Below, one piece after another: positions 18,062 through 38,130 of a DNA stretch of 56,170 bases. The translations under genes and the position numbers were made by a program. Origin of the DNA: Verrucomicrobiales bacterium. GTDB lineage: Bacteria; Verrucomicrobiota; Verrucomicrobiia; Limisphaerales; UBA1096. How positions within the stretch are numbered: the first letter of the stretch is position 1; each line of letters opens with the position of its first letter. The stretch lies in assembly GCA_002684915.1 (NCBI GenBank), contig NYWG01000003.1, positions 41,965 through 98,134 on the forward strand, given 5' to 3'. The notes under the pieces are model-generated. The model saw nothing but the letters and a program-made list of their open reading frames with translations, did no database searches and was not told where the DNA came from.

Positions 18062-21000
18062 ATGAAAAAAATCCAATATAGAATTTGGATTTACATTGCC
18101 ATTGCAATGTCGCAGCTGAGCCACGCCGATTCAGAGGCTTCAATCAAAGTACAAGACGGATTCACTGCTACCCAATATGCCGGCCCTGATTTGGCGGATG
18201 ATATTTACTCAATGACTCTAGACTCTAAGGGCAGAGTAGTAGTCTCAGGTCGAGGCTACATTCGGACACTCCATGATACCAATCAAGACGGCATAGCAGA
18301 CAAATCAATACAATTCGCTAAAGTCGACCGTGGTACTATGGGAATGCTATTTGACGACCAATATTTGTGGGTTGTTGCCAATCGAGCCCTTCTAAGGTTC
18401 GTAGACTCAGATCATGATGGAAAAGCAGATGGGCCGCCGAGCCAGTTCCTTCGACTGGCAAATGGTGAACATGGAGCACATGCTATACGCAAAGGACCAG
18501 ACGGGTGGCTTTATCTAGTTGGCGGAAATGACACAGGATTTACACCTAACCAGTTCAACTCTTTAAATTCGCCTCTTAAAAAAACTGAAGGTGGAGCTAT
18601 CATTCGATTTTCACCGAATGGAAAAAAATTTGAAGCATTATCCTGCGGATTTCGAAACCCATATGATTTCGACTTCAACTGGCGCGGCGATATATTTACC
18701 TATGACAGTGATACCGAACGAACATTTTTTCTTCCGTGGTATACACCAACAAGACTTTATCATGTAGCCATCGGCGGCCATCACGGATGGAGAATGCCTG
18801 GATTCAAACGAAGTTGGGCAAGACCCAGCTATTACTCAGATACTGTGCCAGATATACATAAGATCGGCCGAGGATCTCCTACTGGCGTTGCAGTTTACAG
18901 TCACCATTTATTACCAAAAGAAATGCAAGATGGAATTTTCATTCTTGATTGGACGTTTGGGAATATTTGGTTTTATCCATTGAAAGCCGCTAATGCTTCT
19001 TATCAATCACTCCCTCAGTTATTCATCTCGCCATTAGGCAACGACGGCTTTGCCCCAAGCGATATCGAGGTTGGGCGGGATGGTGAACTTTTCATCTCGA
19101 CTGGAGGCCGAGGCACCAAAGGCTCAGTCTTTCGAGTGATACCGACTAAGAATAATAGCAAAGAAACAAACAATCCCAAAACAACCAAAAACACTTCGAT
19201 TGAGGCTTTACTGAATGCACCCCAACCAATGGCAGAATGGTCGCGTGCACAATGGAAACCACTAGCCAAAAAATTTGGAGTAATTCATCTCACTGAAGCT
19301 GCACTCAATCCAAATAGAAAGCCAAAACAACGAGTAAGGGCAATTGAAATTCTGACTGATATATTTAGCGGACTCGATGCAGATTCTGCAGAACGGCTTT
19401 CAAAATCATTTTCCTCAGACATTCGTGCTAGAACCGCATGGGCAATCGGACGTTATCCAAGTGTGAATGCCACTCAATTACTAAATCATTTAGCACTCGA
19501 CCAAGAGGACTATGTCCGAGTGAAAGCACTCGAGGCTATGCTTCGCTTGTTACCCTTAGCCCCATCTCAATCAGCAGAATGGATTGATACACTTTACGAT
19601 AACTTCAACCAAACGAGCATCAGAGTAAGACTAATAAGTGCTCGTTTAGCCAGCCGCTTACCAAAATCAATTTGGCAAAAAACAAATCATAATAAACTTA
19701 CTACACAAGGGAAAGTTACAGCAATAACAGCAGAGATTTGGCGGAATTCTGAAAAAGAAATTCATATTCAAGCCATTCAAAATTTACTTCCTCTAATCAA
19801 CAGTAATCAGAAAGCAAACCTCAACCTAGACATTGTCAGAACTATTATTCTCGCATTAGGCGATTACAATCTCGAGCGACCAAGTCATGAATCATTCACC
19901 GGATACGAATCACCATATTCACTCACTCCACACAGATCGTTAACTCAAACTATAGCCATACAGATAACGCCTTTGATGAACACTTCACATCAAGACCTTA
20001 AACGAGAAGCTAGCCGGTTACTTGCAATGGTCAGTGCAGAGCAACCAGAGGTTATCAGGAATCTACTCCACGAGATCACACTAGAAACAAACCCAGTAGA
20101 AGACTTTCACAAGCTTATTGTTATGGCAAAACTACCATCATCTCTTCTCGCTGGTGATCTCCAAAAACTAGCTAATGCTTTAATGCAGCTGGACACTAAA
20201 CTAAAAAGCCAAGGGACAAGACCAAAGCTAAATTGGACAATGAGATTTGCTGATATCGCTCAGGCTCACACGAACAAGCAACCCGGCTTGATAAAAAAAA
20301 TTATCGATCATGAAAACTTCCCAACTGCCAGCCACCTTGAATTCGCACTAATGCTTAAAGGGGATAACCGAATAGCTGCAGCAAAACGATATCTCGAAGC
20401 AACTAAAATAAATCAAAAATTGCCATGGTCTAACGAATTGATTGACCTGCTAGCAATAACACCTCAAAAAAACTTATTACCAATTTTACGTAAACAGTGG
20501 TCAAATCGCGGGCTTCGTCCAGCGATTATAAAACATTTAGTAAAACAACCTAAAGCACAAGACAGAGGACTCCTTCTAGATGCGCTACTCTCACGTGATA
20601 ATAACCTCTCTAAAACTGCATTGGGAGCACTTAAGCAATTACCTACAAGTAATAAACCAAGTGACTTCTCCCCCCTAATACGCAAGCTTAGGCGTGAATG
20701 TGGAACCAAAGGAAAAGCCGAAACCCGAAAAAAAATCTTAGAACTACTAACCTCTTGGAGCGGCCATAAATTCAAAAAAGTTCAGGGAAAAAACAACCTA
20801 ACGATCAATTTACTAGCAACTTGGCAACCAGTTTTCGATTGGTTCAACACTACTTATCCAGATCTAGCAGAATCAGCTTCAGACTCCGGATTAGTCAATT
20901 CCACAAAGTGGGAATCCATATTAGGCATTGTTAATTGGAGCGAAGGTAAATTAATTAGAGGCAAAAAAATATTTGTTAACCGCGCTTGTCAAAATTGTCA

Positions 21001-21340
21001 TTCAGGCGCAGGAGCACTTGGCCCTGACCTAATCGGGGTAGTCAAACGTTTGGCTCCAGAAGATTTGTTTCGAACAATTTTGTTCCCTAATCGAGACATA
21101 TCTCCACTGTATAGATTCAACGAATACCGAATGCATAATGGGGATGTACATTTAGGGCGCGCTGCGTTTTATGCTGCAGATGGAATTGTCTTAAAAACTG
21201 GATCAGGAATTATTCGACTAGATCAAAAAGATATCGCTTCACAACATACCAGCGAACGTTCCATTATGCCTGAAGGTTTACTTGAAGGTTTAAAGGCCAA
21301 CGACCTTGCAGACCTATATCAATATTTAAAATCTTTATGA
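18062..21340 (+). CDS. PVC-type membrane-bound dehydrogenase-like protein (beta-propeller, HEAT repeats, C-terminal cytochrome c)
   Basis: D.N.DG.AD, GPDGWLY, GFRNPYD, GSPTG, HEAT-like helices, CQNCH heme motif, GPDL, SIMPEGL. Confidence 0.88.
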   Translation: MKKIQYRIWIYIAIAMSQLSHADSEASIKVQDGFTATQYAGPDLADDIYSMTLDSKGRVVVSGRGYIRTLHDTNQDGIADKSIQFAKVDRGTMGMLFDDQYLWVVANRALLRFVDSDHDGKADGPPSQFLRLANGEHGAHAIRKGPDGWLYLVGGNDTGFTPNQFNSLNSPLKKTEGGAIIRFSPNGKKFEALSCGFRNPYDFDFNWRGDIFTYDSDTERTFFLPWYTPTRLYHVAIGGHHGWRMPGFKRSWARPSYYSDTVPDIHKIGRGSPTGVAVYSHHLLPKEMQDGIFILDWTFGNIWFYPLKAANASYQSLPQLFISPLGNDGFAPSDIEVGRDGELFISTGGRGTKGSVFRVIPTKNNSKETNNPKTTKNTSIEALLNAPQPMAEWSRAQWKPLAKKFGVIHLTEAALNPNRKPKQRVRAIEILTDIFSGLDADSAERLSKSFSSDIRARTAWAIGRYPSVNATQLLNHLALDQEDYVRVKALEAMLRLLPLAPSQSAEWIDTLYDNFNQTSIRVRLISARLASRLPKSIWQKTNHNKLTTQGKVTAITAEIWRNSEKEIHIQAIQNLLPLINSNQKANLNLDIVRTIILALGDYNLERPSHESFTGYESPYSLTPHRSLTQTIAIQITPLMNTSHQDLKREASRLLAMVSAEQPEVIRNLLHEITLETNPVEDFHKLIVMAKLPSSLLAGDLQKLANALMQLDTKLKSQGTRPKLNWTMRFADIAQAHTNKQPGLIKKIIDHENFPTASHLEFALMLKGDNRIAAAKRYLEATKINQKLPWSNELIDLLAITPQKNLLPILRKQWSNRGLRPAIIKHLVKQPKAQDRGLLLDALLSRDNNLSKTALGALKQLPTSNKPSDFSPLIRKLRRECGTKGKAETRKKILELLTSWSGHKFKKVQGKNNLTINLLATWQPVFDWFNTTYPDLAESASDSGLVNSTKWESILGIVNWSEGKLIRGKKIFVNRACQNCHSGAGALGPDLIGVVKRLAPEDLFRTILFPNRDISPLYRFNEYRMHNGDVHLGRAAFYAADGIVLKTGSGIIRLDQKDIASQHTSERSIMPEGLLEGLKANDLADLYQYLKSL

Positions 21341-23644
21341 TCTAAAGAGTAACCTAGCAATTGCTGGTAACAATACGATGGCACATACCATATTCATCAA
21401 AAACATGAACATTAGTAATATCCCCATATCAGATTGAATCTGCAGTGCGGAAAAAGCCCAAGTTCCGACCCCAACAGATAACGTCAGGCCAGTAAAAACA
21501 ATCGCACTACCAGCCTGTTGCATGGCTGCTTCCATTGCATCTGCAAATGCCACTCCCTTACGACGTTGAGCAACAAAACAACTAAACAAATAAATCCCGT
21601 AATCGACTCCCTCCCCGACACCCAATGCCACCACCGGCAGGGTAGAAGTTTTCAAACCAATCTCCATCCAGAACATCAATGTATGCGCCAGAACTGAAAC
21701 TAAAGCCAATGGCAAAACTATACATATAACTATCTTAATCGAACGAAAACTAGCAAAGCAAAGCAGAATCACTGCCAAAAAAACATAAATCAAAATTGGG
21801 AACTGAGCATTACGAACAACCTCATTAGAAGCCGCCATAATCCCAGCATTACCGCCAGCTAAACTAAAGTGCATTTTTTCGTATCCATAATCAGCTTCAA
21901 ACGACTTTACCGCCGTTACTATCCTCCGAATCGTCTCAGCTTTATGATCTTCAAGGAAAATCATTACAGGCAATACACTGCCATCGAGATTGGTCAAACC
22001 GGTAGAGGTTTCAACTCTACCAACTGATTGGGCTAGCATGTCTCTGTTAAATGGCAAAACCTGCCATTTCAAACTTCCTTCACTGTATCCAGAATTAATT
22101 TTACGTGCCATGCCTGCCAAACCCAAAACACTCTTTACTCCCTCAATATTTTTCAAATTCCACTCAAATCGATCGAGCAGTTCCATTACCTTGTAATCAA
22201 CCGAGCCATCTTTAACAGTCTCTACAAAGGCAATAAGCACATCTACACCAAGATTAAAATTATCCGTAATCGCAGCAGTATCCTGGTTATAACGAGAGTC
22301 GGAACGCAGCTCTGGTACGCCAGCATGTAAATCACCAACCTCAACACGGGTCGCTTGATCAAAAGCAAACACAAATAATAATATCCCAATTATAGCAAGC
22401 ACCTTGGCCACCCTACGCTCTGAGACTACTGACACATGATGCCAGAATTTTTTTGTTTTAATTTTTCTTTTGGCAACTCGCTCCCGATAAGTATGGCTTG
22501 GCTTTTGGTATGACAACAAAAGAGGTAGAAGAATGAGATTCGTGACAATAATTGCAGCAACTCCAACACTCGCCGCAATTGCCAGCTCCCGAATGGTTGG
22601 TACCGGGATTAGAAGAATAGTGATAAAACCAATAGTGTCTGTCAGTAACGCCACTCCACCTGGAATTAAAAGCTCGCTAAATGCCTTACGCGCAGCAATC
22701 AATGCTTCCTCCCCATGAAACAATTGATCTCGAAACACACGCACCATTTGCACGCCATGACTTACCCCAATGGCAAATACAAGGAACGGTACAAGAATTG
22801 ACATAGGGTCAATACCAAAACCCATTAAATGTATTATCCCAAGTTGCCATGCTACTGCAGCCAAAGAACATCCCATCGGGAGCACTGAAAAAATAAACGA
22901 CTGAGAATAAAGCCATACTAATAATGCAGTTACTACAATCGTGACACAGAAGAAAAATATAACATTAAGAGCCCCATCACGAACATCCCCCATAACCTTT
23001 GCAAATCCTATAACATGTACTTTGATAGTTTCCGATTCGTACTTTCCACGAAGTGATTCTAATGCACGTGCTACAGCAAAAGTATCAAGAGGCTTCTTAG
23101 TATCAGGATCTATATCGAGCAAGTTGGCCATAACCATAGCTCCGTTAAAAGAGTCAGTCACAAGTCTCCCCATATAATTGGATTTAAGGACATTCTCTTT
23201 AACCTTAGCCAAGTCTTGCAACGTGTTTGCGAAATCTGCCGGAACTACATTTCCTCCCGTAAAACCATCTTCTACCACCTCTGTAAATCGTACGTTTGGT
23301 GTGAATAAAGATGTAACACTAGCTTGATCAACACCTGACATGGCATAAACATCCTTAGTCAGTGAATCGAGCCTGTTAAAATAATCTTCATTAAATATTT
23401 CTCCCTCCTCAACGATCATCGCCAGGATTACTCGATTAGCACCTCCAAATTCGGACTCGTACTCGCGAAATTTCTGAATGTACTCATGCCCTAGGGGTAA
23501 TTGTTTTTCAAAACGGGCATCTACTTGTGTCTGAGTAGCAAACCCCAAAAAGAGAGCGGTCAAAATCAAGAACAAGACAAGAAACCTTGCTCTATGACGA
23601 AACAACCATTGCTCTACCCAAAAAGAAAATGAACTCTTAATCAT
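21335..23644 (-). CDS. RND/MMPL family transporter
   Basis: Duplicated architecture of one TM helix, a periplasmic domain and a TM bundle. FAIGVSHGVQ and GVDYGIY motifs. Confidence 0.92.
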   Translation of the reverse strand: MIKSSFSFWVEQWLFRHRARFLVLFLILTALFLGFATQTQVDARFEKQLPLGHEYIQKFREYESEFGGANRVILAMIVEEGEIFNEDYFNRLDSLTKDVYAMSGVDQASVTSLFTPNVRFTEVVEDGFTGGNVVPADFANTLQDLAKVKENVLKSNYMGRLVTDSFNGAMVMANLLDIDPDTKKPLDTFAVARALESLRGKYESETIKVHVIGFAKVMGDVRDGALNVIFFFCVTIVVTALLVWLYSQSFIFSVLPMGCSLAAVAWQLGIIHLMGFGIDPMSILVPFLVFAIGVSHGVQMVRVFRDQLFHGEEALIAARKAFSELLIPGGVALLTDTIGFITILLIPVPTIRELAIAASVGVAAIIVTNLILLPLLLSYQKPSHTYRERVAKRKIKTKKFWHHVSVVSERRVAKVLAIIGILLFVFAFDQATRVEVGDLHAGVPELRSDSRYNQDTAAITDNFNLGVDVLIAFVETVKDGSVDYKVMELLDRFEWNLKNIEGVKSVLGLAGMARKINSGYSEGSLKWQVLPFNRDMLAQSVGRVETSTGLTNLDGSVLPVMIFLEDHKAETIRRIVTAVKSFEADYGYEKMHFSLAGGNAGIMAASNEVVRNAQFPILIYVFLAVILLCFASFRSIKIVICIVLPLALVSVLAHTLMFWMEIGLKTSTLPVVALGVGEGVDYGIYLFSCFVAQRRKGVAFADAMEAAMQQAGSAIVFTGLTLSVGVGTWAFSALQIQSDMGILLMFMFLMNMVCAIVLLPAIARLLFRS

Positions 23645-23654
23645 TCAACCTGCT

Positions 23655-24659
23655 TTAGTTCAACTCATCCAGAGTTATACGAAACACACCACGATCGGTA
23701 GTAATCAATAAACTACCATCCTCCGATTGCCAAAAATCAGTTGGCACAGCAGCCTTCTCCAATAAGGGCTCAACTTGAAACAACCGGCCCTCTCCATTGC
23801 CTAACAACAATTCTCCTGCCCCGGATGCGATAACCACCCGTCCATCCTTCAATTGAAGACCTCTGTGCAATATTGCATTCGTTGGTGAATCAATTTTTTC
23901 CCATATTGAACCATTCTTAAATCTAAATATATTACCTTGTAATCCGTGCACAATGATCGAGTCACTCTTAATTAATGGTACCGCACCAAATAAGGTTCCC
24001 TCATATTCAATATCTAGCGACTTCCATGATTTCCCTTGATTATTACTTTTCCACACAGTTCCAAATTCACCAATCAACCAAAGAAACCCATTTGCTGCAG
24101 ATGTAATTTGATAAAAGTGAGGATCGTCCTCCTGTTTATTTTCTATCCATGTGTTTCCACCATCGATGGTCGAAAAGAACTTACCGTAAGAACCAACTAT
24201 AAATCCACGACTTGAATCAACAAACAGCAAATCCAAAAAAGATGTTTCAGGATCATCCAACACCTTAATCTTAGTCCAACTTTCACCACTATCTTGCGAA
24301 CGAAGAACAGTAGATTGATGCCCTACAATCCAAATCGTTTTTTGATCCAAAAGATATACCGAATTTAGCGTGCGACGAGTTGGGGATTGTTTCTGGATCC
24401 AATTTTTACCCTGATTATTAGTTAAAAGTATATGGCCACGCTCCCCAACAGCAATCGCTATTCCTGCTCGACCATGAATACCAAGCAATAAAGATTCTTT
24501 GGCTAAACGCGCCGTTACAGATGGACCATCGATCAACTGAGCAACTGGCGCAATCGAACCAAACAAAAAAAATACAAACACTGAAAGAATAGAACAACGG
24601 GCCGAGGAAAACCTCGGCCCGCCTTTGGGTAGTTTTGATTCTTTAATTAAAAAATACAC
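23655..24659 (-). CDS. YCF48/BNR-repeat beta-propeller protein
   Basis: AVGERGHIL, S.D.G.SW and T.DGG.TW BNR repeats. The start codon is uncertain. Confidence 0.88.
   Translation of the reverse strand: MYFLIKESKLPKGGPRFSSARCSILSVFVFFLFGSIAPVAQLIDGPSVTARLAKESLLLGIHGRAGIAIAVGERGHILLTNNQGKNWIQKQSPTRRTLNSVYLLDQKTIWIVGHQSTVLRSQDSGESWTKIKVLDDPETSFLDLLFVDSSRGFIVGSYGKFFSTIDGGNTWIENKQEDDPHFYQITSAANGFLWLIGEFGTVWKSNNQGKSWKSLDIEYEGTLFGAVPLIKSDSIIVHGLQGNIFRFKNGSIWEKIDSPTNAILHRGLQLKDGRVVIASGAGELLLGNGEGRLFQVEPLLEKAAVPTDFWQSEDGSLLITTDRGVFRITLDELN
24598..24620 (-). terminator. GC-rich intra-operon hairpin (terminator- or stabiliser-like) downstream of the DUF1329 gene
   Basis: Perfect 10-bp stem CGGGCCGAGG-TTT-CCTCGGCCCG, followed on the minus strand by TTGTTCTATTCTTT. 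Confidence 0.6.
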
Positions 24660-24678: not shown

Positions 24679-26028
24679 TTAGCGACGTCCGCGGCGGCGA
24701 AGTGATGACGGAGTATAATTACCCGGCTTGCTTTCAAACGAAAAATCGTACATTTCATTTTCATTGTCCAAACCGTGTGCAAGATAACGCCCTGAAAGTA
24801 TATCCATATGAACCTCAAGGGTAGACCAGAATGATAGCACTTCATAATAGTTAATACTATGCGCCTCTGAAACCCTCCAAAGCCGGCCCTGCCCATCGTA
24901 CTGATCTACTACAAGAGCACCCCAACTATCTTCATCAATATAAAAACGACGCTTAGAATAAATATGACGCTTACCCTCTTTTAGAGTGGCTTCAACTACC
25001 CAGACTCGGTGCAGCTCATAGCGAGTATGTGTCTGATTAATATGAAGCGGAGTAACAATATCTTTCACCTTTAACTCATCGCTATGCAGTTTATAGGAGT
25101 TATATGGTACATAAAGTTCCTTTTTACCAATAAGCTGCCAGTCGTAACGATCTATCGCTCCATTAAACATATCTAACTGATCACTTGTCCGCATACCATC
25201 AGATGCTGTACCAGGATTGTCATAGGCCACATTTGGAGCACGGCGTACTCGACGTTGACCGGTATTATAAACCCATGCACGTCGTGGGTCTGCAACCTGA
25301 TTCAATGTCTCATGCACCATTAGAATTGTACCGGCCAAACGTGCAGGTGATGTAACCTTCTGTTCCATGTAAGCCATAACATTACCGATATTATCAGAAG
25401 TAGCCCCCTTCTTGTGATAATTCCAAAAAAGCTGCTCCTCCAATTGCACTAGCGTGTAATTACCCGAACGAGTAGGAGCCACTTGTCCCACCTTTCGAAT
25501 ACCACTTAATCCTCGATACCTTAACAAGTGATTCCAAATCACCTCTTGTCCATTCTGAGGTATTGGAAATGGAATGCCACGAGAAGCACCAACGACTCCA
25601 TTACCGTCATCAGCCAACTTGGCTTTACCGACGTTTGCCTTAGTCGCATCATAAATATCTTGAGGAGCTGAAGCACTCCGCTTAGTAGGATAGACTGGCA
25701 TTTTGTAAGTCGAACCATATTTATCGAAAAGCGCCTTGTGGCCTTCACTCAAATTGTTGGAATACTTTTCAGCATTGGCCTCAGTGATGGTAAAAAGTGG
25801 TTTATCATTAGTAAAAGGATCGGGATGATGGTCCCCTACCTTATATCCTGCAGGCGGTGTCGTAATACCACCATCCCAATCAGGTATAGCCGAACCATTG
25901 CCCGCTTTCTGCGCGCCTAAAGGAGTCAGCTTCTCTCCAAGATCATCCGCACTTTGAGAAGATACTGAAACTACGCCCAACACAAAGGTAAAGACGGTTA
26001 TCGAATAAAAATTAAAGTTAAGTTTCAT
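24679..26028 (-). CDS. DUF1329 family periplasmic protein
   Basis: LTPLGA.KAGN..IP.W.GG, PFPIP..G.E..WNH, QRRVRRAP, RYELHRVWVVEA, DEDSW motifs. Confidence 0.92.
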   Translation of the reverse strand: MKLNFNFYSITVFTFVLGVVSVSSQSADDLGEKLTPLGAQKAGNGSAIPDWDGGITTPPAGYKVGDHHPDPFTNDKPLFTITEANAEKYSNNLSEGHKALFDKYGSTYKMPVYPTKRSASAPQDIYDATKANVGKAKLADDGNGVVGASRGIPFPIPQNGQEVIWNHLLRYRGLSGIRKVGQVAPTRSGNYTLVQLEEQLFWNYHKKGATSDNIGNVMAYMEQKVTSPARLAGTILMVHETLNQVADPRRAWVYNTGQRRVRRAPNVAYDNPGTASDGMRTSDQLDMFNGAIDRYDWQLIGKKELYVPYNSYKLHSDELKVKDIVTPLHINQTHTRYELHRVWVVEATLKEGKRHIYSKRRFYIDEDSWGALVVDQYDGQGRLWRVSEAHSINYYEVLSFWSTLEVHMDILSGRYLAHGLDNENEMYDFSFESKPGNYTPSSLRRRGRR

Positions 26029-26047: not shown

Positions 26048-28315
26048 TTAAAAGGAGTACTGCACCATCGCTGAAAGAAAGTCTCTATCATGCATAAAAT
26101 TATGAGATTCATTGCCAAAATATTCGGTATACTTAATAGAACCCTGCCAAGAGTTCTGATACGTAGCGGTGACTCCCAGAGTTACCGTTTTACGGTCTCG
26201 TAGAAAATTACCTAAAGGTAGAGGAGTATTTCCATCAACATCATGTGCAAATGCAATGGCAGGAGAAAGATTAACCCCACCATACACATCCATATAATCG
26301 ATTCGAGCAGCCAAACGATAACCCCAAGAAAAATCATCTGCAAAAGAATCAGCCGACTCAAAACGATCAGTTGCATGCCCGTTTGCTGCCAAGATCTGAG
26401 GCGCAAATGCGTTACCACTCAGAACCGTACCCGGACCATCAAAACGAAGCTTATCTTTGCTAGGTAGATCAGGCACAGCAGTCGCACCAACCTCACCTAC
26501 AAGAACCCATTGTTCAGCTCCTATCGTCGGGCCAAAAAGCTTAGTAACAGTAAACTGCGGCTGTAGTACATCAAAGTTTCTGTAACCCTGAACATAACTA
26601 TTAAACCCTTGAGATCCTAACTGGGTCATGCTGACACCATTCCAAGCTGGATTCAATGCCCCAAGATTTCCCAAAACCGGGTTTGAAGGAGTCAATCCAG
26701 CAACTAATAATTCGATATCATCTATCTGTAGCGGGACATCATTACGATAAGAAATCTCACCTTGAACAGAAATACCGGTGGCCCCTATCTCTGTGTTGAA
26801 GCTGATTCCATACAACTGAATATCTTCCGGATATTCAAAAATATATCTAGCTGTACCAGGGTAAAGAGCTGCCAAACTTGGCAATCCAGCAATTAGACTA
26901 TTTAGTTGCGCCTCAGTCCCAGCTAGCTGCGCCTCAGTCCCAGCTAGTTGCGCCTCAGTCCCAGCTAGTTGCGCCTCAGTCCCAGCTAATTGCGCCGTCA
27001 AAGTCGCCTGCTGGGTTTTTAGAGCTACTAACCCATCATTATTGGGGTCATTTGCTTCAAGTTGCGCAATAGATTCATTAACCTGAGCCAAACCAGCCTC
27101 AGCTTGACCGATCCCAGCCTCAAGTTGACCGATCCCAGCCTCAAGTTGACCGATTCCAGTCTTCAATTGGCCGATCCCCGCATTTAAAGGATTAATAGCG
27201 TTAGTTTGAATTTCAGTCTGAATATCTCTACCAGTGATAGCACTAATAAGAGGCAGCCGGCTGTGATAATTCAAAAAGTAAAAACCAAACTCAGTATCGT
27301 TGAGTCCCTCCGCAAAATAATGCGCTGCAAAACCAAATTGCCCGCTATCACTTGCCCTGTTGCTTTTACCACGCGGAATCGCGCCCGCGTTAGAAGGGAG
27401 AAACGGAGCATTTGCAGCACTAGGAGGCAATGTCGGATTGAAGCGTGGATTTGAAAGTGTAGGTAGCTTGGCAGGAACCCCATCTAGGAATGGAGCAAGC
27501 GGATTATCTGTCCAACTCGACATATTAGGATTACTGAGGCTACCAAAACCAAGCATCGCGTATTGACCTCCATCTCCTACAAAATCTTTTGTGCTAAAAT
27601 AACTACCAGCTGGATCGATCTCCATCTCCTCATGCTTAAACTGATAAAATCCCTCAAGAGAAAGATTATCTGTAAGCTGAATCGAAGCTGAAAGTAATGG
27701 AACAGGACGAAGTGCTTCACGTAGTTCAGAGCCGGGGACTCGGAATTTTTTAACATCAATCGGGTTGATAACATTAATTCCATTCTGAATGAATGTGCTC
27801 TCGCCCCAACTTAAAACTTGATTACCTAAGCGAATATTAACCGGAACAGAAAATGGAAGGTCATAAGAAACATAAGCATCTAACAACTCAGTATCACGAC
27901 CTACCTCACGTTTTGCAGAACCACTCAAAGGGCTATCACTACGATTATTTTCAAAATCAATAAAGTAAGTACCGCGAATAAAAATACTCACATCCTGCAG
28001 TTCCTTGAAAGCCAGCTCTAAATCATGCGTTCCTTTGGAAACATGAGAGAAGAGACCCGAGTCATAATTTAAGTTTGCGTCATCGCCATTTACAGAATAC
28101 GCGGTTCCTCCATTAGCTCTGCCAATTGAGCTCAGCTCCGGGTCGTCCACACGAAACGATCCTCCGTAGCTCAAGGTCGAGTCAAAGTTACCCTCAATAA
28201 TATCGTTTTCGAATTCAACTGCTTGCGTCGTGCCAGCTGCCGCGAGAAAAGCGGATAGAATAAATCGTTTAGCCATCTGAGATTCGCCTATGTTTTTGGC
28301 TTTTGAGTTAGTCAT
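26048..28315 (-). CDS. DUF1302 family outer-membrane protein with a coiled-coil insertion
   Basis: D.TLSYG, N.DD.NLNY, R.GNQV.SWGES.F..NGIN, YHSRLP, EYPEDI..YG.SF, DRDF and a terminal Phe. Start is ATG 28315 or 28276. Confidence 0.9.
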   Translation of the reverse strand: MTNSKAKNIGESQMAKRFILSAFLAAAGTTQAVEFENDIIEGNFDSTLSYGGSFRVDDPELSSIGRANGGTAYSVNGDDANLNYDSGLFSHVSKGTHDLELAFKELQDVSIFIRGTYFIDFENNRSDSPLSGSAKREVGRDTELLDAYVSYDLPFSVPVNIRLGNQVLSWGESTFIQNGINVINPIDVKKFRVPGSELREALRPVPLLSASIQLTDNLSLEGFYQFKHEEMEIDPAGSYFSTKDFVGDGGQYAMLGFGSLSNPNMSSWTDNPLAPFLDGVPAKLPTLSNPRFNPTLPPSAANAPFLPSNAGAIPRGKSNRASDSGQFGFAAHYFAEGLNDTEFGFYFLNYHSRLPLISAITGRDIQTEIQTNAINPLNAGIGQLKTGIGQLEAGIGQLEAGIGQAEAGLAQVNESIAQLEANDPNNDGLVALKTQQATLTAQLAGTEAQLAGTEAQLAGTEAQLAGTEAQLNSLIAGLPSLAALYPGTARYIFEYPEDIQLYGISFNTEIGATGISVQGEISYRNDVPLQIDDIELLVAGLTPSNPVLGNLGALNPAWNGVSMTQLGSQGFNSYVQGYRNFDVLQPQFTVTKLFGPTIGAEQWVLVGEVGATAVPDLPSKDKLRFDGPGTVLSGNAFAPQILAANGHATDRFESADSFADDFSWGYRLAARIDYMDVYGGVNLSPAIAFAHDVDGNTPLPLGNFLRDRKTVTLGVTATYQNSWQGSIKYTEYFGNESHNFMHDRDFLSAMVQYSF
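26903..26996. repeat. 21-bp tandem repeat, about 4.5 copies, encoding LAGTEAQ heptads
   Basis: Unit TAGTTGCGCCTCAGTCCCAGC at 26903, 26924 (1 mismatch), 26945 and 26966, with a partial copy at 26987. Confidence 0.95.
27093..27176. repeat. 21-bp tandem repeat, 4 copies, encoding IGQLEAG-like heptads
   Basis: Unit CCAGCCTCAAGTTGACCGATC at 27114 and 27135 (last base differs), with more diverged copies at 27093 and 27156. Confidence 0.9.
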
Positions 28316-28433
28316 GGATCGGCAATTCTTACCATGAATCATTGGCATTTCACATAAAAATTTATTTTATTTTTAATATTTAAACGCAATGCAAAGTTGA
28401 CCCTAAATGACTAAAATCAGAAACTCTCTTTTC

Positions 28434-29867
28434 ATGAACCGCGTATTAGTTCTGATAATCTGGGGCCTGATTTCCCAAGAGGTAGCTGCTTCAGCTAAAC
28501 AACCTAACTTTCTGATTATCATGGCCGACGATTGCACATACAACGACCTAGCATTGTATGGCGGTAAAAATGCAAAAACACCAAATATCGACCGTTTAGC
28601 AAAGCAAGGCCTTACCTTCAATAGAGCATATCTTGCTGAAGCCATGTGCCAACCTTGTCGCGCTGAAATGATGACTGGACAATATCCGCTTCATAATGGG
28701 TGTGCATGGAATCACTCAGCTAGCCGTACCAGTGTTAAAAGCATGCCCCATCACCTAGGCGCTCTAGGCTATCGTGTGGGTATTGCCGGCAAAGTGCATG
28801 TCAAACCAGCCTCAGCATTCCCGTTTGAAAACATCAAAGGTTTTGATCCAAACTGTGTTCGTAATCCAACACAAGACCACAACCTCAAAGGAATACAAAG
28901 TTTCATGCAACGTAACACCAAACAGCCGTTCTGTCTTATTGTTGCTTTAGTCGAACCACATGTGCCATGGGTTATGGGAGACCCCTCCAAATATCCACCA
29001 TCTAAGCTAAAACTACCACCAACAATCGCTGATACTCCTCGCACACGGGAAGACTTCGCTAAGTATCTTGCTGAAATCACCTATATGGATGGTCAAGTAG
29101 GCGAAATTCTAACTACGCTAAAGAAAAGCGGTGGAGAGAAAGAAACCGTGGTGTTGTTTACATCAGAACAAGGTTCGCAATTTCCAGGCAACAAATGGAC
29201 CAACTGGAACACCGGCGTCCATACTGCACTCCTAGCACGTTGGCCTGGCCGCATCCCTTCCGACAAACGTACTGATGCTCTGGTCCAGTATGCTGATATT
29301 CTACCCACTCTTGTTGATCTGGCAGGAGGAAACCCCAAAACTTATCCCTATGATGGAAAAAGTTTTAAGTCCTCACTTTTGAATATAACCACTAAACATC
29401 GTCAATTTGTTTACGGCATACACAACAATATTCCTGAAGGCCCTCCCTATCCCATTCGCTCCGTATCCGACGGCGAATATCATTATATACGAAATCTCCT
29501 TCCAAATGAGATTTACATCGAGAAACACCTAATGGGCTCACGTGGAAACGGTTCGCTTAATAATCCTTATTGGGGCACATGGCTTTGGGATTCATGGAAT
29601 AAACCACGCACCTACAAACTTGTTAAACGATACATGCATCGCCCAGCAGAAGAACTTTACCGCGTCAACGATGACCCCTATGAAATGAACAATTTGGTCG
29701 ATGATAAAAAACACAATAAACAATTGACCAAGCTTAGAGCGGAACTAGACAGATGGATGACCTCCCAAAAAGATCCAGGCGCCTTAGTAGATACTATCAA
29801 CGCAATCCAAGCCTCAAGAAAAAACAAACATCTTCACGGGCAAGCTGCAACAAAGACTATTCGATAG
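28434..29867 (+). CDS. Formylglycine-dependent sulfatase (S1)
   Basis: Signal peptide, PNFLIIMADD, TPNID.LA, CQPCR (CxPxR), GKVH, PHVP, EELY....DPYE.NNL. Confidence 0.93.
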   Translation: MNRVLVLIIWGLISQEVAASAKQPNFLIIMADDCTYNDLALYGGKNAKTPNIDRLAKQGLTFNRAYLAEAMCQPCRAEMMTGQYPLHNGCAWNHSASRTSVKSMPHHLGALGYRVGIAGKVHVKPASAFPFENIKGFDPNCVRNPTQDHNLKGIQSFMQRNTKQPFCLIVALVEPHVPWVMGDPSKYPPSKLKLPPTIADTPRTREDFAKYLAEITYMDGQVGEILTTLKKSGGEKETVVLFTSEQGSQFPGNKWTNWNTGVHTALLARWPGRIPSDKRTDALVQYADILPTLVDLAGGNPKTYPYDGKSFKSSLLNITTKHRQFVYGIHNNIPEGPPYPIRSVSDGEYHYIRNLLPNEIYIEKHLMGSRGNGSLNNPYWGTWLWDSWNKPRTYKLVKRYMHRPAEELYRVNDDPYEMNNLVDDKKHNKQLTKLRAELDRWMTSQKDPGALVDTINAIQASRKNKHLHGQAATKTIR

Positions 29868-31071
29868 CTCCCAATAAAGCTTTACCGAGCCTCTGAATAG
29901 CTGCCTTATCTCCCTGCATATGAATAGTGCGGTGGATATGTGTGGATGACTCATCTGGTTTAAGCTCAAGTGCTGGCGATGAGGATTCCAATTCATAAAA
30001 CGGCCCCAAAGGCTTTGCGCCAGGACTAGGCGGTCCATCATTATAACTGTTAACAACATCACCATTGAAAGGTTCATCCTGCAATTCCCACATCGAGTTA
30101 ACATAATTAGTTGCGCCTTTCGGCTTATTATACTGCACAAGGGTCAATAACTGACGAGTTGCATCATAACTTCCAAGTATCGACTTGGCACGTTTCGGCG
30201 AAAGACCAATTTTACTACGATATTTACCATCAGCAGAAAACCGAATCACACCGTCCTTTACTCTCAACCGTTCAGCCGGCACTTCCCCAAAATAATCAGC
30301 GTTAACAATCGGGCCTAAATCAGCCTCATCGCCCTCAACATATGGCACCAACACCGTCGTATCGGTAGAATGCTTATACATACCAAGTATCCATATTGAC
30401 AACAAACCTCCATGCTTAGTCCAAGCGGCATCTCCAATGTTAGTCAAAATATTCTCAGTCTCATATGCAACTATATCAATAGATGGAGGCAATTTCACAT
30501 CAAGGAGTTCATCAATACTTGAACGATCCAATAAACGCACTGTTCGATCAATTCGGATAAGGAAATGGGTGTCGGAGTAATTTTTTATTTTTGCCTCATG
30601 ACGAAAAGTAACCTCGCGGTCTGTTTTTGTTATTACTTCGTATGGCCGAGTATCAATTAAAGCAGGTGTCTGCCAGTGCTCCAGATCAAAAGGATCACCT
30701 TTCTTGAAAAAAATTGAAAACTGACCTCCTTCAGGCCCTAGCCAAAACCTATCCTCACCTCCATATGCATTAATGTGAGGATCATTCCGACCAGCTTCAA
30801 TAAGCTCACGGTTAATCCACCCATGGCTTGGGCTTTTACTACCTCCAACAGTACTAGTCATCACCCTGCCTTGGTAGGCAGGAACAATTGCTACCTTCGG
30901 CTTTCCAGGGCCCTGACCTAGCGTTATTACTTCAACATGTTTTTCCAGAAAAGCGACGTCTTGAGGGAATGTCATTTCTTTTAAGGGCTTCGATGAATCA
31001 AAACGGCTACAAGCCATTTGATTAAACGTCACCACAATAAATACAATCAGGATCGCTAATTTCGCTTTCAT
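29857..31071 (-). CDS. Conserved exported protein (DUF6786-like), probable lipoprotein
   Basis: QGRVMTST, GGEDRFWLGPEGGQFSIFF, SYNDGP, FYELESSSPA, and a QMAC lipobox-like site. Confidence 0.75.
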   Translation of the reverse strand: MKAKLAILIVFIVVTFNQMACSRFDSSKPLKEMTFPQDVAFLEKHVEVITLGQGPGKPKVAIVPAYQGRVMTSTVGGSKSPSHGWINRELIEAGRNDPHINAYGGEDRFWLGPEGGQFSIFFKKGDPFDLEHWQTPALIDTRPYEVITKTDREVTFRHEAKIKNYSDTHFLIRIDRTVRLLDRSSIDELLDVKLPPSIDIVAYETENILTNIGDAAWTKHGGLLSIWILGMYKHSTDTTVLVPYVEGDEADLGPIVNADYFGEVPAERLRVKDGVIRFSADGKYRSKIGLSPKRAKSILGSYDATRQLLTLVQYNKPKGATNYVNSMWELQDEPFNGDVVNSYNDGPPSPGAKPLGPFYELESSSPALELKPDESSTHIHRTIHMQGDKAAIQRLGKALLGAIE

Positions 31072-31092
31072 TAAACGCAATATAGCAAACTA

Positions 31093-34427: not shown

Positions 34428-34659
34428 ATTCTCTTTATTTTCGTTTATCCTACACCAGAAAACGGAATTTAATTTATGCGAATTCAGCTAAACACCCATC
34501 CTTAAAAAAGCCTAAAAAACATATTACCGTCCAAACCGGTCTCTCATACTATCATAATCTATAAATATTAAAAGCTACGTTTTTTGGCTTTTTTATTGAG
34601 ACTAACTTGTCTTTAGCTTGCCCAATATTGTGTTAGCGTTAAATTTTCGCCCGTTCAAT

Positions 34660-37600
34660 ATGATAAAGCTGCTCACATTACTATGCTTCACTAGTGTTTT
34701 TATAACACCGCAAAACTCTCTTTTAGCTAATATGGAAGATGGGCCTATTCGGGTACTATTTTTGGGACACGAAAGCGAACATCATAACTCAAATGCTTAT
34801 TATCCAATGCTTTCCAAAGCATTAGGGCGAGATGCTATTTATTTTGACTATGTTACTTCGGTTGAAGAAGCACTCGGAGACGAAAAATACCTCGGAAAAT
34901 TTGACGCACTATTACTTTATGCAAACCACGGAAAAATTGAACCTCACCAATGGAAAAATCTTAAAAACTTCGTCGAAAACGGAGGAGGCTTTTTACCAAT
35001 CCATTGTGCAAGCTGGTGTTTCTCAAATGAACCTGGCTTTGATAAACTTGTAGGTGGCAGGTTCAAAAGTCATCAAGGGGCTGATTTCAAAGCGAAAATA
35101 ATAAAGCCTAATCATCCCGCAATGAATGGTGTAAAAGAATTTACTGCATGGGATGAAACCTATTTTCATTCAAATCACAATACCAAAAATCGGACCGTTC
35201 TAATGGTCCGAGATGCTATGAAGGGAGATCCACATACCGAGCCTGAACCTTGGACATGGATACGCACGCAAGGTCGTGGACGCGTCTTTTACACTGCATC
35301 CGGTCATGATCATCGAGTGTGGAATAACACCGCTTTTCATCAGCTAATAAAAAGCGGTATCATCTGGGTAATTGGTGACAAGGCAAGGAAGCGCTACGAA
35401 AATTTTCTTACCAAACGCGCGCCACTAAAATACGAGAAACGTAATAACATTCCAAACTACGAACGACGTAAAGAACCACTCCAATACCAACTACCCCTCT
35501 CTCCCGAAGAGAGCATAAAATACACGCAAGTACCAATAGGATTCCGCATGGAGCTTTTTGCATCAGAACCGGAAATCATCAATCCAATCTACATGACTTG
35601 GGACGAACGCGGACGACTTTGGGTAGTTGAAACAGTTGATTATCCGAATGAATTTAAGGATGGCCGAAAAGGAAATGATCGAATCAAGATTTGTGAAGAT
35701 ACAAATGGTGATGGTAAAGCTGACAAGTTCACTGTGTTTGCCGAAGGCTTTAATATTCCTACTTCAATGACTTTTGCTCGTGGAGGAGTTATTCTTGCCC
35801 ACGCTCCAGAATTCTATTTCCTTAAAGATACAAATGGTGACGATAAAGCGGATATTAAAGAGGTACTTTTTTCCGGCTGGGGTGTAGGAGATACTCACGC
35901 AGGCCCAAGTAATTTGCGATACGGATTTGATAATTGGATTTACGGAACCGTCGGCTATGCTCGCTTTAATGGCTCATTAGGCGGAAAGCAGCATAATTTT
36001 GGAATGGGCGTATTCCGGTTTAAATCTGATGCGACTGATATTGAGTTCCTCCATCAATTCAACAACAACACATGGGGACTAGGTTTCAATACATCCGGCG
36101 ACGTCTTTGGTTCCACCGCAAATAATAACCCAACCTTTTATGGCGGCATCCCTGCAACTGTTTACAATGGAGAGCGTAAGATGAGCGCCAAAATGATTGC
36201 TGATACGCCAGCCTTTCATCCTATCACACCTAACATAAGACAAGTGGACGCATTTAATGCATACACAGCAGGCTGCGGCCACGCTTTTGCTACTTCAGAT
36301 GCCTTTCCAAAAAAATACCGTGACCGTGCAGCATTCGTCTGTGGACCAACTGGCAACCTAGTTGGCACATATAATATCATAAAAAAAGGTGCCGGCTATA
36401 CCGCAAAGAATGCATTCAGCTTTGTAGCCAGCGCGGATGAATGGTTCTCTCCTATCGTTGCCGAGGTAGGACCAGATGGCCACCTCTGGATCGCCGATTG
36501 GTACAATTTTATTATACAACACAATCCGACCCCAAGCGTAGGCCGAGGCGGTTATGCCGCCAAAAACGGTCGAGGTAACGCTCACATTAATCCAAACCGT
36601 GATCGCCAGCACGGCCGAATCTATCGAGTAATCTGGGAAGAAGCACCAAAATCAACAATTACGTCTCTAGCTCAGGCAAGCCCAGATGAGCTCACCAAGG
36701 CCTTAGATAATGATAATCTTTTTTGGCGACAAACTGCACAGCGAATGATTGTTGATAGGGGAATTAAGAAAGCTGAGAAATCTCTACGTAAAAGAGTATC
36801 GGGCCGTGGAGTAGGCGCCATCCACGCTCTTTGGGCACTCGAAGGAATTGGAGCTCTTGATAATAAAATAAAACGCAGCGCTCTAATAAACGGGGATCCT
36901 CAGGTGAAGCTCAACGCTATACGCGCACTTGGAAAAACCAAAGAAGATGAACAATTGCTCTATGACAGTGCCGCACTTACCGACAAAGATTTACACGTTC
37001 GCTTAGCTGCCATGGTGAAACTCGCTCAGTTCCCAGAATCCAATACACATAAGCAAGCAGCTAGTATTTTAGCTACCGATGAAACTAACACAAAAGACGA
37101 ATGGCTTAAACAAGCACTTCAAGCTGCTGGCGCTGAAAAGACTAATATTGCCGGTTATAAACGCGGTCCAAATCTACTTAAAAACGCCTCTTTTGAAACA
37201 AATGACGGCAAGCTTCCTGCTAACTGGAAAGTTCGCACTTACAGTGCGAAAGGTAAGGATGTCGAACACGCCATCGAAACACGCGCAAGCCATATCAAAA
37301 GCGGTAAAGCCTCGATTAAAATCAGATCCGGTAGTGGCCATGACACAAGTATTTATTCTAATGTTGAACTAAAATCAGGCACTACCTACGCACTAAGTGC
37401 ATGGATTAAAACCGAAGGTGTCAATGGGGGGTACGGTGCACTCCTTAATATTCATGAACTACAACACGAAGGAAAAACTAAAGCCCTGAAAGGAAACAAT
37501 AATTGGGAAAAAATAGAACTAATCTTTGAAAGCAAACAAACTGGCAAGCTTACCGTTAATTGCCTTTTTGGAGGCTGGGGACAAGCCAAGGGAACAGCAT

Positions 37601-38130
37601 GGTACGATGATGTCTCTCTACAAGAAGTTTTACCCATCTATAAAAACGTTAATAAAGAAAGCTCAAAACAAAGTATTGCTAAACGCGTTAAAGATATATT
37701 TTCAAGTGACAAATCTGATTTAAGAGGAACTAATTTTAAGGAACCTCTTAAAATTACCATTAATACTGTTAAAGACAGGATGATGTACGATTTAAATGAA
37801 TTTCAAGTAGAGACTGGACGTTTGGTCTCAATAAAATTTATTAATAAAGACTTCGCACCACATAATCTTTTGATAGTAAAATCAGGAAAAGCTGATGAAG
37901 TTTCAAATCTTGCTATTGCTTTAACTAATGATGGACCAAATAAAGACTGGCGACCCGACTCATCACTAATCTTGTGGGGATCAAAAATGATTAATCAAAA
38001 TGAAGAAGAAATTATAACTTTTAACGCCCCAGTTCCAGGAAGCTATCCATACATATGCACATTTCCAGGGCACTCACAAATGATGAGAGGAATTATGAAA
38101 GTTATACCTATAAAAGAAGATAAAAAATAA
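34660..38130 (+). CDS. Multidomain PVC-type dehydrogenase-like protein: ThuA + beta-propeller + HEAT + CBM-like + cupredoxin
   Basis: ThuA motifs (HCAS, DETY, GRVFYTASGH), LSPEES..FASEP, DTHAGP, N.LKN.SFE CBM-like domain, C-terminal PHN...CTFPGH..MM type-1 copper site. Confidence 0.85.
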   Translation: MIKLLTLLCFTSVFITPQNSLLANMEDGPIRVLFLGHESEHHNSNAYYPMLSKALGRDAIYFDYVTSVEEALGDEKYLGKFDALLLYANHGKIEPHQWKNLKNFVENGGGFLPIHCASWCFSNEPGFDKLVGGRFKSHQGADFKAKIIKPNHPAMNGVKEFTAWDETYFHSNHNTKNRTVLMVRDAMKGDPHTEPEPWTWIRTQGRGRVFYTASGHDHRVWNNTAFHQLIKSGIIWVIGDKARKRYENFLTKRAPLKYEKRNNIPNYERRKEPLQYQLPLSPEESIKYTQVPIGFRMELFASEPEIINPIYMTWDERGRLWVVETVDYPNEFKDGRKGNDRIKICEDTNGDGKADKFTVFAEGFNIPTSMTFARGGVILAHAPEFYFLKDTNGDDKADIKEVLFSGWGVGDTHAGPSNLRYGFDNWIYGTVGYARFNGSLGGKQHNFGMGVFRFKSDATDIEFLHQFNNNTWGLGFNTSGDVFGSTANNNPTFYGGIPATVYNGERKMSAKMIADTPAFHPITPNIRQVDAFNAYTAGCGHAFATSDAFPKKYRDRAAFVCGPTGNLVGTYNIIKKGAGYTAKNAFSFVASADEWFSPIVAEVGPDGHLWIADWYNFIIQHNPTPSVGRGGYAAKNGRGNAHINPNRDRQHGRIYRVIWEEAPKSTITSLAQASPDELTKALDNDNLFWRQTAQRMIVDRGIKKAEKSLRKRVSGRGVGAIHALWALEGIGALDNKIKRSALINGDPQVKLNAIRALGKTKEDEQLLYDSAALTDKDLHVRLAAMVKLAQFPESNTHKQAASILATDETNTKDEWLKQALQAAGAEKTNIAGYKRGPNLLKNASFETNDGKLPANWKVRTYSAKGKDVEHAIETRASHIKSGKASIKIRSGSGHDTSIYSNVELKSGTTYALSAWIKTEGVNGGYGALLNIHELQHEGKTKALKGNNNWEKIELIFESKQTGKLTVNCLFGGWGQAKGTAWYDDVSLQEVLPIYKNVNKESSKQSIAKRVKDIFSSDKSDLRGTNFKEPLKITINTVKDRMMYDLNEFQVETGRLVSIKFINKDFAPHNLLIVKSGKADEVSNLAIALTNDGPNKDWRPDSSLILWGSKMINQNEEEIITFNAPVPGSYPYICTFPGHSQMMRGIMKVIPIKEDKK

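Follow-up and report, generated by a model that had tools for sequence, protein, structure and literature searches.

The window examined here is a stretch of 56,170 bp (contig NYWG01000003.1 of assembly GCA_002684915.1, forward strand, positions 41965 to 98134) from a Verrucomicrobiales bacterium, and it includes a gene for a DUF1302 outer-membrane protein in which two separate arrays of 21 bp repeats lie on either side of a short turn. The question raised by this locus is how two arrays of different sequence come to encode arms of the same length, and what such a structure might do on an outer-membrane barrel. A preliminary description of this DNA, made from the sequence alone, had proposed an antiparallel coiled-coil hairpin of two 49-residue arms with xxxLxxG-type heptads, inserted in a loop of the barrel, recently expanded, and tuned in length by coordinated repeat slippage in both arms. 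Passage through a capsule, capture of substrate and shielding from phage had been offered as possible roles. In the present analysis, the arm lengths were found to covary between diverged lineages and to be frequently mismatched within the species of the window.

Two in-frame repeat arrays in a DUF1302 gene

Residues 385–488 of the 766 amino acid (aa) protein, encoded by the minus strand at 26885–27196, form seven heptads in arm 1 (INPLNAG, IGQLKTG, IGQLEAG twice, IGQAEAG, LAQVNES and IAQLEAN), a turn reading DPNNDG, and seven heptads in arm 2 (LVALKTQ, QATLTAQ, LAGTEAQ four times and LNSLIAG). A Pfam scan matched the protein to PF06980 (DUF1302) with E=1.6e-165 and 552.6 bits, against a gathering score of 23.2, and the match was full-length (residues 28–766 on positions 5–541 of the 541-position profile). 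This is the only DUF1302 copy in the 4.5-Mb assembly.

Tandem Repeats Finder (TRF), run at the default score of at least 50, identified a period-21 array in each arm, with 4.1 copies and 87% matches in arm 1 and 4.5 copies and 95% matches in arm 2 (coordinates in Table 1). Both arrays are in frame, and they are the sole tandem repeats of the window at this score. Each is a direct-repeat family of its own, and no inverted repeat or palindrome joining the two was found. The arm-2 units vary at a single silent site each (CAATTA.., CAACTA.. twice and CAGCTA..), and the arm-1 units are somewhat more diverged.

The true translation start is probably Met25, at 28276 on the minus strand and 24 codons inside the start of the open reading frame (ORF; the extra portion being window 28276–28348). 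Read by eye from the sequence, Met25 heads a typical signal peptide (KRFILSAFLAAAGTTQA followed by VEF, the junction reading TTQA/VEF). Database copies use three different starts, giving proteins of 766, 764 and 755/748 aa. A plus-strand ORF at 27206–27454 (82 aa), antisense to the gene, was rejected as it had no support.

A predicted helical hairpin in the fifth long loop

AlphaFold2, supplied with a 150-sequence alignment, produced a model of the full protein with a mean predicted local distance difference test (pLDDT) value of 93.6 and a predicted template modelling (pTM) score of 0.85. The barrel in this model has 18 strands, and published strand predictions for DUF1302 are 18 or 16. Between strand 9 (352–361, extended at 367–371) and strand 10 (501–505 and 510–521) are two antiparallel helices of 58 and 55 residues, separated by a break at DPNND, with pLDDT values of 95–98 (boundaries in Table 1). 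The hairpin comprises about 118 residues and has a predicted length of about 8.5 nm (58 residues at 0.15 nm). As the helix boundaries put i+j at about 872, the arm-1 units at 392–419 would face residues 453–480, nearly the arm-2 units at 454–481, and the two arrays are thus likely to encode opposing sides of the same mid-stalk stretch. This predicted structure thus combines two long helices and a tight turn with a/d periodicity of the heptads in each arm and, as described below, with covarying arm lengths.

In outer-membrane proteins, the termini and short turns are usually periplasmic and the long loops extracellular. In the model, eight connections of 2–7 residues alternate with nine long ones of 12–148 residues, the two ends of the polypeptide both lie on the short-turn face, YSF forms the C-terminal end, and the hairpin falls within the long-loop set. 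Given this alternation and the position of the termini, the usual topology rule would place the hairpin, in the fifth long loop (L5), outside the cell.

Foldseek found the barrel to be nearest to porins of 16–18 strands (MOMP 5ldt, OccAB3 5dl7, AlgE 8pz4 and a chitoporin), with template modelling (TM) scores of 0.48–0.57 by target. A PDB sequence search returned no DUF1302 structure and only coiled-coil noise (reovirus sigma-1, designed coils). The ESM Atlas contains its own model of the protein (pTM 0.80), in which residues 367–505 align structurally with helical segments of other proteins at TM scores of 0.70–0.90 by query. The top ESM Atlas match to these residues (TM 0.90) was a DUF1302 cluster of 352 members with a 754 aa representative, labelled mostly Pseudomonadota, the phylum being known for only 79 of the 352 members. 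The hairpin may occur beyond the Verrucomicrobiota clade described below, or this cluster may simply include that clade.

The same loop was compared in 170 other DUF1302 representatives for which both loop flanks were present in the alignment, and was found to range from 11 to 325 aa with a median of 45.5 (30 residues or fewer in 58 representatives, 80 or more in 56). From this alignment, L5 appears to be a family-wide hot spot for inserts or appendages. A regular heptad hairpin was present in L5 in none of the 170 representatives sampled, whereas in a marine Verrucomicrobiota clade it was present in every member with two identifiable loop anchors (87 full-length proteins and shorter fragments). 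The homologues had been drawn from a 5.8-billion-protein collection, and a second search, started from P0083, recovered this clade again without adding any sequence with the hairpin. Hydrophobic power at period 3.5 was 1.2–2.3 in 9 of 11 clade rows tested, the exceptions being P0088 (0.38) and P0081 (0.02), which have four and five heptads per arm (4+4 and 5+5), respectively. It did not exceed 0.4 in the other 56 long inserts, and regular heptad periodicity in L5 would seem to be confined to the marine Verrucomicrobiota clade. One of the other representatives, P0168 (904 aa), has a 325-residue Ala/Gly-rich insert at the loop equivalent to residues 367–504, with long internal repeats in which ..HPDGAAAGAQAA.. 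and ..EVAGPAAIAAVP.. motifs recur, and further representatives carry unrelated inserts of 90–210 residues at L5.

Across 21 species-level sequences, the arm-1 heptad reads [L/I][A/G/T]Q[V/L][E/N/D][G/A][G/A], and arm 2 has a single Leu per heptad with Ala/Gly and Gln beside it. Arm 1 of the window protein passed the cut-off of NCBIfam TIGR03057 (xxxLxxG_by_4; 23.3 bits versus 18.6, residues 388–412) and arm 2 fell below it; a six-frame search of the 4.5-Mb assembly gave a single TIGR03057 match, of 28 bits. The hairpin in the window protein has a net charge of -10 and no aromatic residues. Mean column identity was 0.89 at the arm-1 tip, 0.82 in the turn and least (0.54) at the arm-2 base, compared with 0.54–0.79 for the stalk and 0.95 for the barrel flanks. 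A Pfam scan of the insert alone found only sub-threshold generic coiled-coil families, and that of the full protein found DUF1302 only, plus a sub-threshold match to MscS_porin. A precomputed match to PF25994.1 was listed for seven close alleles with longer arrays (P0002–P0004, P0006, P0008, P0009 and P0015); it is probably the hairpin that is matched.

The structural part of the preliminary description is borne out by these data. Its protein sequence was reproduced exactly by ORF translation and its two arrays were recovered by TRF, and the assignment to DUF1302, the insertion relative to homologues and the antiparallel hairpin in a barrel loop agree with the Pfam match, the family comparison and the AlphaFold2 model. 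The 49 aa given for each arm is right for a delimitation at 7+7 heptads, the AlphaFold2 helices being longer, and the xxxLxxG character applies to arm 1 only.

Arm length across the clade

A tree of the barrel only, with the insert removed, was constructed using FastTree with Shimodaira–Hasegawa-like support, and arm states were scored as arm-1 plus arm-2 heptads in the 87 full-length clade proteins. Matched states were found in 75 proteins (7+7 in 63, 6+6 in eight, 5+5 in two, and 4+4 and 8+8 in one each) and mismatched states in 12 (7+6 in six, 6+5 and 6+7 in two each, and 7+5 and 6+8 in one each). With 4 to 8 heptads per arm, the stalk would measure roughly 5.5 to 9.7 nm. The length variants on diverged branches were all matched (P0085, 6+6; P0088, 4+4; P0080, 8+8; P0074 and P0081, 5+5; P0067/68, P0019 and P0021, 6+6), and all 12 mismatched rows were on tree tips of near-zero length.

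In nine phylogenetically independent pairs drawn without the species of the window, arm 2 had changed in the same direction as arm 1 in seven, in the opposite direction in none, and was unchanged in two (sign test, p=0.0156). With all rows included, the median p of the sign test on independent pairs was 0.0078. The paired indels are located mid-stalk, at comparable distances from the turn (12–44 residues), and never at the tip. The hairpin and its heptad register are kept in clade members down to 66% identity, and relatives at 66–90% identity carry diverged, non-repetitive heptads.

Alleles of the window's species

Eighteen allele clusters with 97–100% identity, made up of the window and 17 database clusters that may not all be independent, were compared. 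Their states were 7+7 (five clusters), 7+6 (six), 6+6 (three), 6+5 (two), 7+5 (one) and 6+8 (one), and 10 of the 18 are thus mismatched. The mismatched states within one species indicate that the arrays slip independently, and that the matching is due to selection rather than to a mechanism that coordinates them. Independent slippage followed by selection or compensation looks like the explanation for the matching seen between diverged lineages.

Sister lineages at 88–94% identity were 6+6 with diverged units (RAGLTAQ, LAGTEAQ and LTGTEAQ), and a lineage at 90% identity was 7+7 with non-repetitive heptads. The diverged heptads of these relatives suggest that the near-identical units represent recent homogenisation, in the window's species, of an old hairpin. 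Recent expansion, as first proposed, therefore holds for the units in this species and not for the hairpin itself, which is shared with relatives at 66–90% identity. Likewise, the matched arm lengths of the preliminary description stand across diverged lineages and do not extend to conspecific clusters, and coordinated repeat slippage fails at the strain level, where the two arrays were found to vary independently, the outcome that the description itself had named as counting against it.

An independent metagenome contig, L002, was identical in DNA sequence over the whole insert. The region is represented in 20 marine sequencing runs from 10 studies. Logan contigs (k=31) from four sequencing runs broke inside the arm-2 array in all four and inside the arm-1 array in two, and the arm-1 array was bridged without difference in two runs (X7 and X8). 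In the 7+6 locus L003, the one mismatched allele for which DNA was compared, units a-b-b are kept and unit c is missing, a pattern not expected from collapsing two identical b units. The 7+7, 7+6 and 6+6 states were each seen repeatedly on distinct backgrounds, and singleton alleles such as 6+8 and 7+5 on one contig each. Some of the mismatched alleles other than L003 may be assembly errors. An AlphaFold2 model of the 6+8 allele (P0009) retained the turn at DPNN, with the arm-2 end unpaired, a kink at 487–489 and hairpin pLDDT values of 70–92, which is weak evidence that a mismatch is structurally unfavourable.

At window position 26774 (third codon position of residue 525, minus strand), the window has A and the contigs of all four runs have C, so at this site the metagenome-assembled genome (MAG) of the window departs from the majority base of the samples concerned.

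A proposed surface spacer and the alternatives

The region is proposed to be the middle of an antiparallel coiled-coil hairpin that interrupts the fifth long loop of a barrel with 18 strands, where it would stand about 8.5 nm off the long-loop face, the cell surface by the standard rule. The Gly-rich, xxxLxxG-type arm 1 would pack against the Gln/Ala-rich arm 2 where the arrays lie. Stalk length would shift by in-frame gain or loss of 21 bp units, with each array slipping alone and generating mismatched alleles within a species, and only equal-arm alleles would persist between species owing to selection for a fully zipped hairpin. The stalk could then act as a spacer that keeps the conserved tip at a set height, where substrates, partners or a surface layer may be contacted. 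Such a surface spacer is the best guess because a conserved tip is found on a stalk whose sequence and heptad number (4 to 8) both vary, and because a DUF1302 protein of Pseudomonas aeruginosa, PA3923, has been reported to be a laminin receptor at the surface (PMC6890786). Taken as a whole, a selected two-helix hairpin stalk on the DUF1302 barrel, serving as a surface spacer with a conserved tip, is given a little better than an even chance. A bolder version, in which the hairpin is an adjustable extracellular mast whose tip docks at a fixed distance on a capsule or other surface layer, on a particle or on a droplet of substrate, whose length switches fast in the window's species (under phage or grazer pressure, for example), and whose mismatched alleles are real, short-lived intermediates, is regarded as rather doubtful.

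Several observations weigh against the spacer. Most DUF1302 proteins have a short loop at this position (30 aa or fewer in 58 of 170), indicating that the core function does not depend on the hairpin, and hairpin length is not tracked by the lengths of the three partner proteins encoded in the operon (see below). The conserved tip may only reflect the needs of a tight turn. The ten mismatched clusters of the window's species, against eight matched, mean that mismatch is either tolerated there or an assembly error. Sidedness follows from the topology rule only, and, as TolC illustrates, long helical hairpins on the periplasmic side can be borne by barrel proteins. AlphaFold2 tends toward high confidence for any regular heptad sequence, and no DUF1302 structure has been solved (PMC13499233).

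The hairpin could instead be an appendage that is tolerated but serves no function itself, L5 being permissive and the matched arms and conserved turn arising from folding and protease resistance alone. The 56 representatives with unrelated L5 inserts of at least 80 aa, the wide range of loop lengths (11–325 aa), the frequent length polymorphism at strain level and the partner proteins that do not change with hairpin length are all consistent with this. However, the hairpin is retained with its register in 87 of 87 full-length members, down to 66% identity, the arm-1 tip (0.89) is conserved above the stalk (0.54–0.79), and exactly 7+7 heptads are found in 63 of the 87, making a functionless appendage unlikely. 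It is also conceivable, though somewhat less probable again, that the hairpins of neighbouring barrels bundle as dimers or trimers and form an oligomerisation or lattice module, not a free stalk. The small residues (Gly/Ala at two heptad positions) would favour close multi-helix packing, and general porins of similar fold are trimers, but the nearest structural matches include AlgE and Occ family barrels, which are monomeric, and a net charge of -10 with no aromatic residues is not favourable to self-association. Homodimeric stalks of the EsaA/PIP type (bioRxiv 10.1101/2020.08.17.254201) and PAP hairpins that hexamerise (PMC8277102) would be precedents for bundling.

A periplasmic hairpin, with its tip docked on the RND/BNR complex or on the DUF1329 protein in the manner of TolC or tripartite-pump adaptors, would suit an operon encoding an RND transporter and periplasmic partners; its length would then be matched to the width of the periplasm, and pump adaptor hairpins, with their tip motif, are likewise built as a variable stalk ending in a conserved tip (PMC8277102). 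This arrangement is nevertheless improbable, as the hairpin is among the long loops, opposite the termini and all eight turns of 2–7 residues, is missing from most family members, and shows no covariation with partner lengths. Least credible is an origin of the arrays, or of their copy numbers, in faulty assembly. Although the k=31 contigs break within the arrays and the 6+8 and 7+5 alleles are singletons, exact repetition at a shift of 21 extends over 40 bp at most, and the k-mers usual in metagenome assemblers are longer than this. In addition, L002 is identical to the window, X7 and X8 cross the arm-1 array with no differences, the loss of unit c in L003 is not explained by collapse of b units, and the 7+7, 7+6 and 6+6 states recur on several backgrounds.

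Comparison with known systems

The described DUF1302 systems (PP_0765/PP_0766 with PP_2018/PP_2019 in P. putida, Sama_1588–1591 in Shewanella, and PA3923) resemble the one examined here in their Pfam match, 18 predicted strands and four-gene neighbourhood, but these members, like the 170 representatives, have no regular heptad hairpin in L5. Literature searches on DUF1302/DUF1329 found no description of such a hairpin, and those on helical hairpins in the extracellular loops of outer-membrane proteins found only work on TolC, OmpM, adaptors and autotransporters.

The closest parallel for the evolution of the arms is the cytoplasmic signalling hairpin of chemoreceptors, which is also antiparallel, with a conserved tip and symmetric seven-residue indels in both arms (PMC5907407), the heptad length classes being those of Alexander and Zhulin. 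Unlike the chemoreceptors, the structure predicted here is a two-helix hairpin in an outer-membrane barrel loop, outside the cytoplasm, and its indels are visibly driven by 21 bp arrays, with mismatched intermediates in the population. No match to a chemoreceptor (MCP) signalling domain was found in the window protein using Pfam or NCBIfam.

The YhgE/Pip/EsaA stalks share with arm 1 a match to TIGR03057, and among control genomes such matches were found in Bacillus subtilis, Lactococcus lactis, Corynebacterium glutamicum and Deinococcus radiodurans. The extracellular stalk of EsaA is described as elongated and of a 'there and back again' form, and its tip, exposed at the surface, is a phage receptor in some species. 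However, the YhgE/Pip/EsaA proteins belong to the inner membrane of monoderms (plus D. radiodurans). Only arm 1 of the hairpin described here fits the repeat model, and the Pfam scan detected no YhgE/Pip-type membrane domains in the window protein. Adaptor and TolC hairpins are likewise long and antiparallel, and are attached to envelope transport systems with an RND pump. The adaptor hairpins have a conserved tip motif and vary in size, and the hairpin is absent in BesA (PMC8277102). The hairpin described here differs in that it is predicted on the opposite side of the membrane; the score against the HlyD-family model TIGR01843 was 12.3 bits, far from the cut-off of 208.65, and no OEP/TolC domains were found in the protein by Pfam scan.

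In-frame variable-number tandem repeats are known to change the length of surface structures between strains, the coiled-coil stalks of trimeric autotransporter adhesins among them. The difference from such adhesins is that two separate arrays must change together here for one zipped hairpin, and that the stalk is a barrel loop and not a passenger domain.

DUF1302 proteins are widespread in Gram-negative bacteria, including Pseudomonas, where they are tied to growth on fatty esters, and a rod predicted to extend about 8.5 nm from the long-loop face would provide a handle on the outward-facing side of the barrel and its possible contacts. The clade would also be a plain case of compensatory hairpin evolution, in which matched states from 4+4 to 8+8 have been fixed between species and candidate mismatched intermediates occur within one. 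The symmetric-indel rule is already known from chemoreceptors, but in this clade the DNA mechanism, 21 bp slippage, is visible together with the intermediates. The array states could be genotyped directly from ocean metagenomes.

The operon and neighbouring genes

The DUF1302 gene is the first of four on the same strand, in the order DUF1302-DUF1329-BNR-RND (Table 1), and this order is kept in both relatives checked, L084 (7+7) and L090 (5+5). The three partner proteins are 450, 346 and 769 aa with the 7+7 hairpin, versus 450, 358 and 774 aa with the 5+5 hairpin. The four genes are co-fit in Shewanella, in Kangiella and in Pseudomonas (bioRxiv 10.1101/072470). Growth of P. putida on Tween 20 requires the set, and this type of operon is tied to the handling of hydrophobic or envelope compounds in Pseudomonas and Shewanella.

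Table 1. Coordinates in the window of the DUF1302 gene, its hairpin and repeat units, and the genes downstream
Feature	Residues	Window coordinates	Strand	Evidence
DUF1302 outer-membrane beta-barrel gene, 766 aa ORF		26048..28348	-	PF06980
Loop L5 insert, strand 9 to strand 10	367-504	26837..27250	-	Family alignment and AlphaFold2
Predicted arm 1 helix, Gly-rich heptads	376-433	27050..27223	-	AlphaFold2, TIGR03057, column composition
Arm 1 repeat units IGQLKTG, IGQLEAG x2, IGQAEAG	392-419	27092..27175	-	Within TRF array 27093-27178
Predicted turn DPNND	434-438	27035..27049	-	AlphaFold2 break between helices; column identity
Predicted arm 2 helix, Gln/Ala-rich, one Leu per heptad	439-493	26870..27034	-	AlphaFold2, column composition
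Arm 2 repeat units LAGTEAQ x4	454-481	26906..26989	-	Within TRF array 26903-26996
DUF1329 (LolA-like) partner gene, directly downstream		24679..26028	-	PF07044, E=3.8e-158
BNR / Ycf48-like beta-propeller gene		23655..24659	-	PF14870, E=4.1e-19
RND-superfamily transporter gene (MMPL / Patched-SSD type)		21335..23644	-	PF03176, E=1.3e-25

The nearest genomes are those of marine Verrucomicrobiota MAGs labelled Verrucomicrobiales, Pedosphaera or Limisphaerales. A sulfatase gene (28407–29867, plus strand) adjoins the DUF1302 operon and is divergent from it, and is followed by a DUF6786 gene (29857–31080, minus strand); these neighbours fit a marine Verrucomicrobiota living by polysaccharide degradation. 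Two very large DUF7133 proteins are also encoded in the window (18062–21340 and 34618–38130, both plus strand), one with cytochrome c and HEAT repeats, and the other with ThuA, a carbohydrate-binding module and a plastocyanin-like domain.

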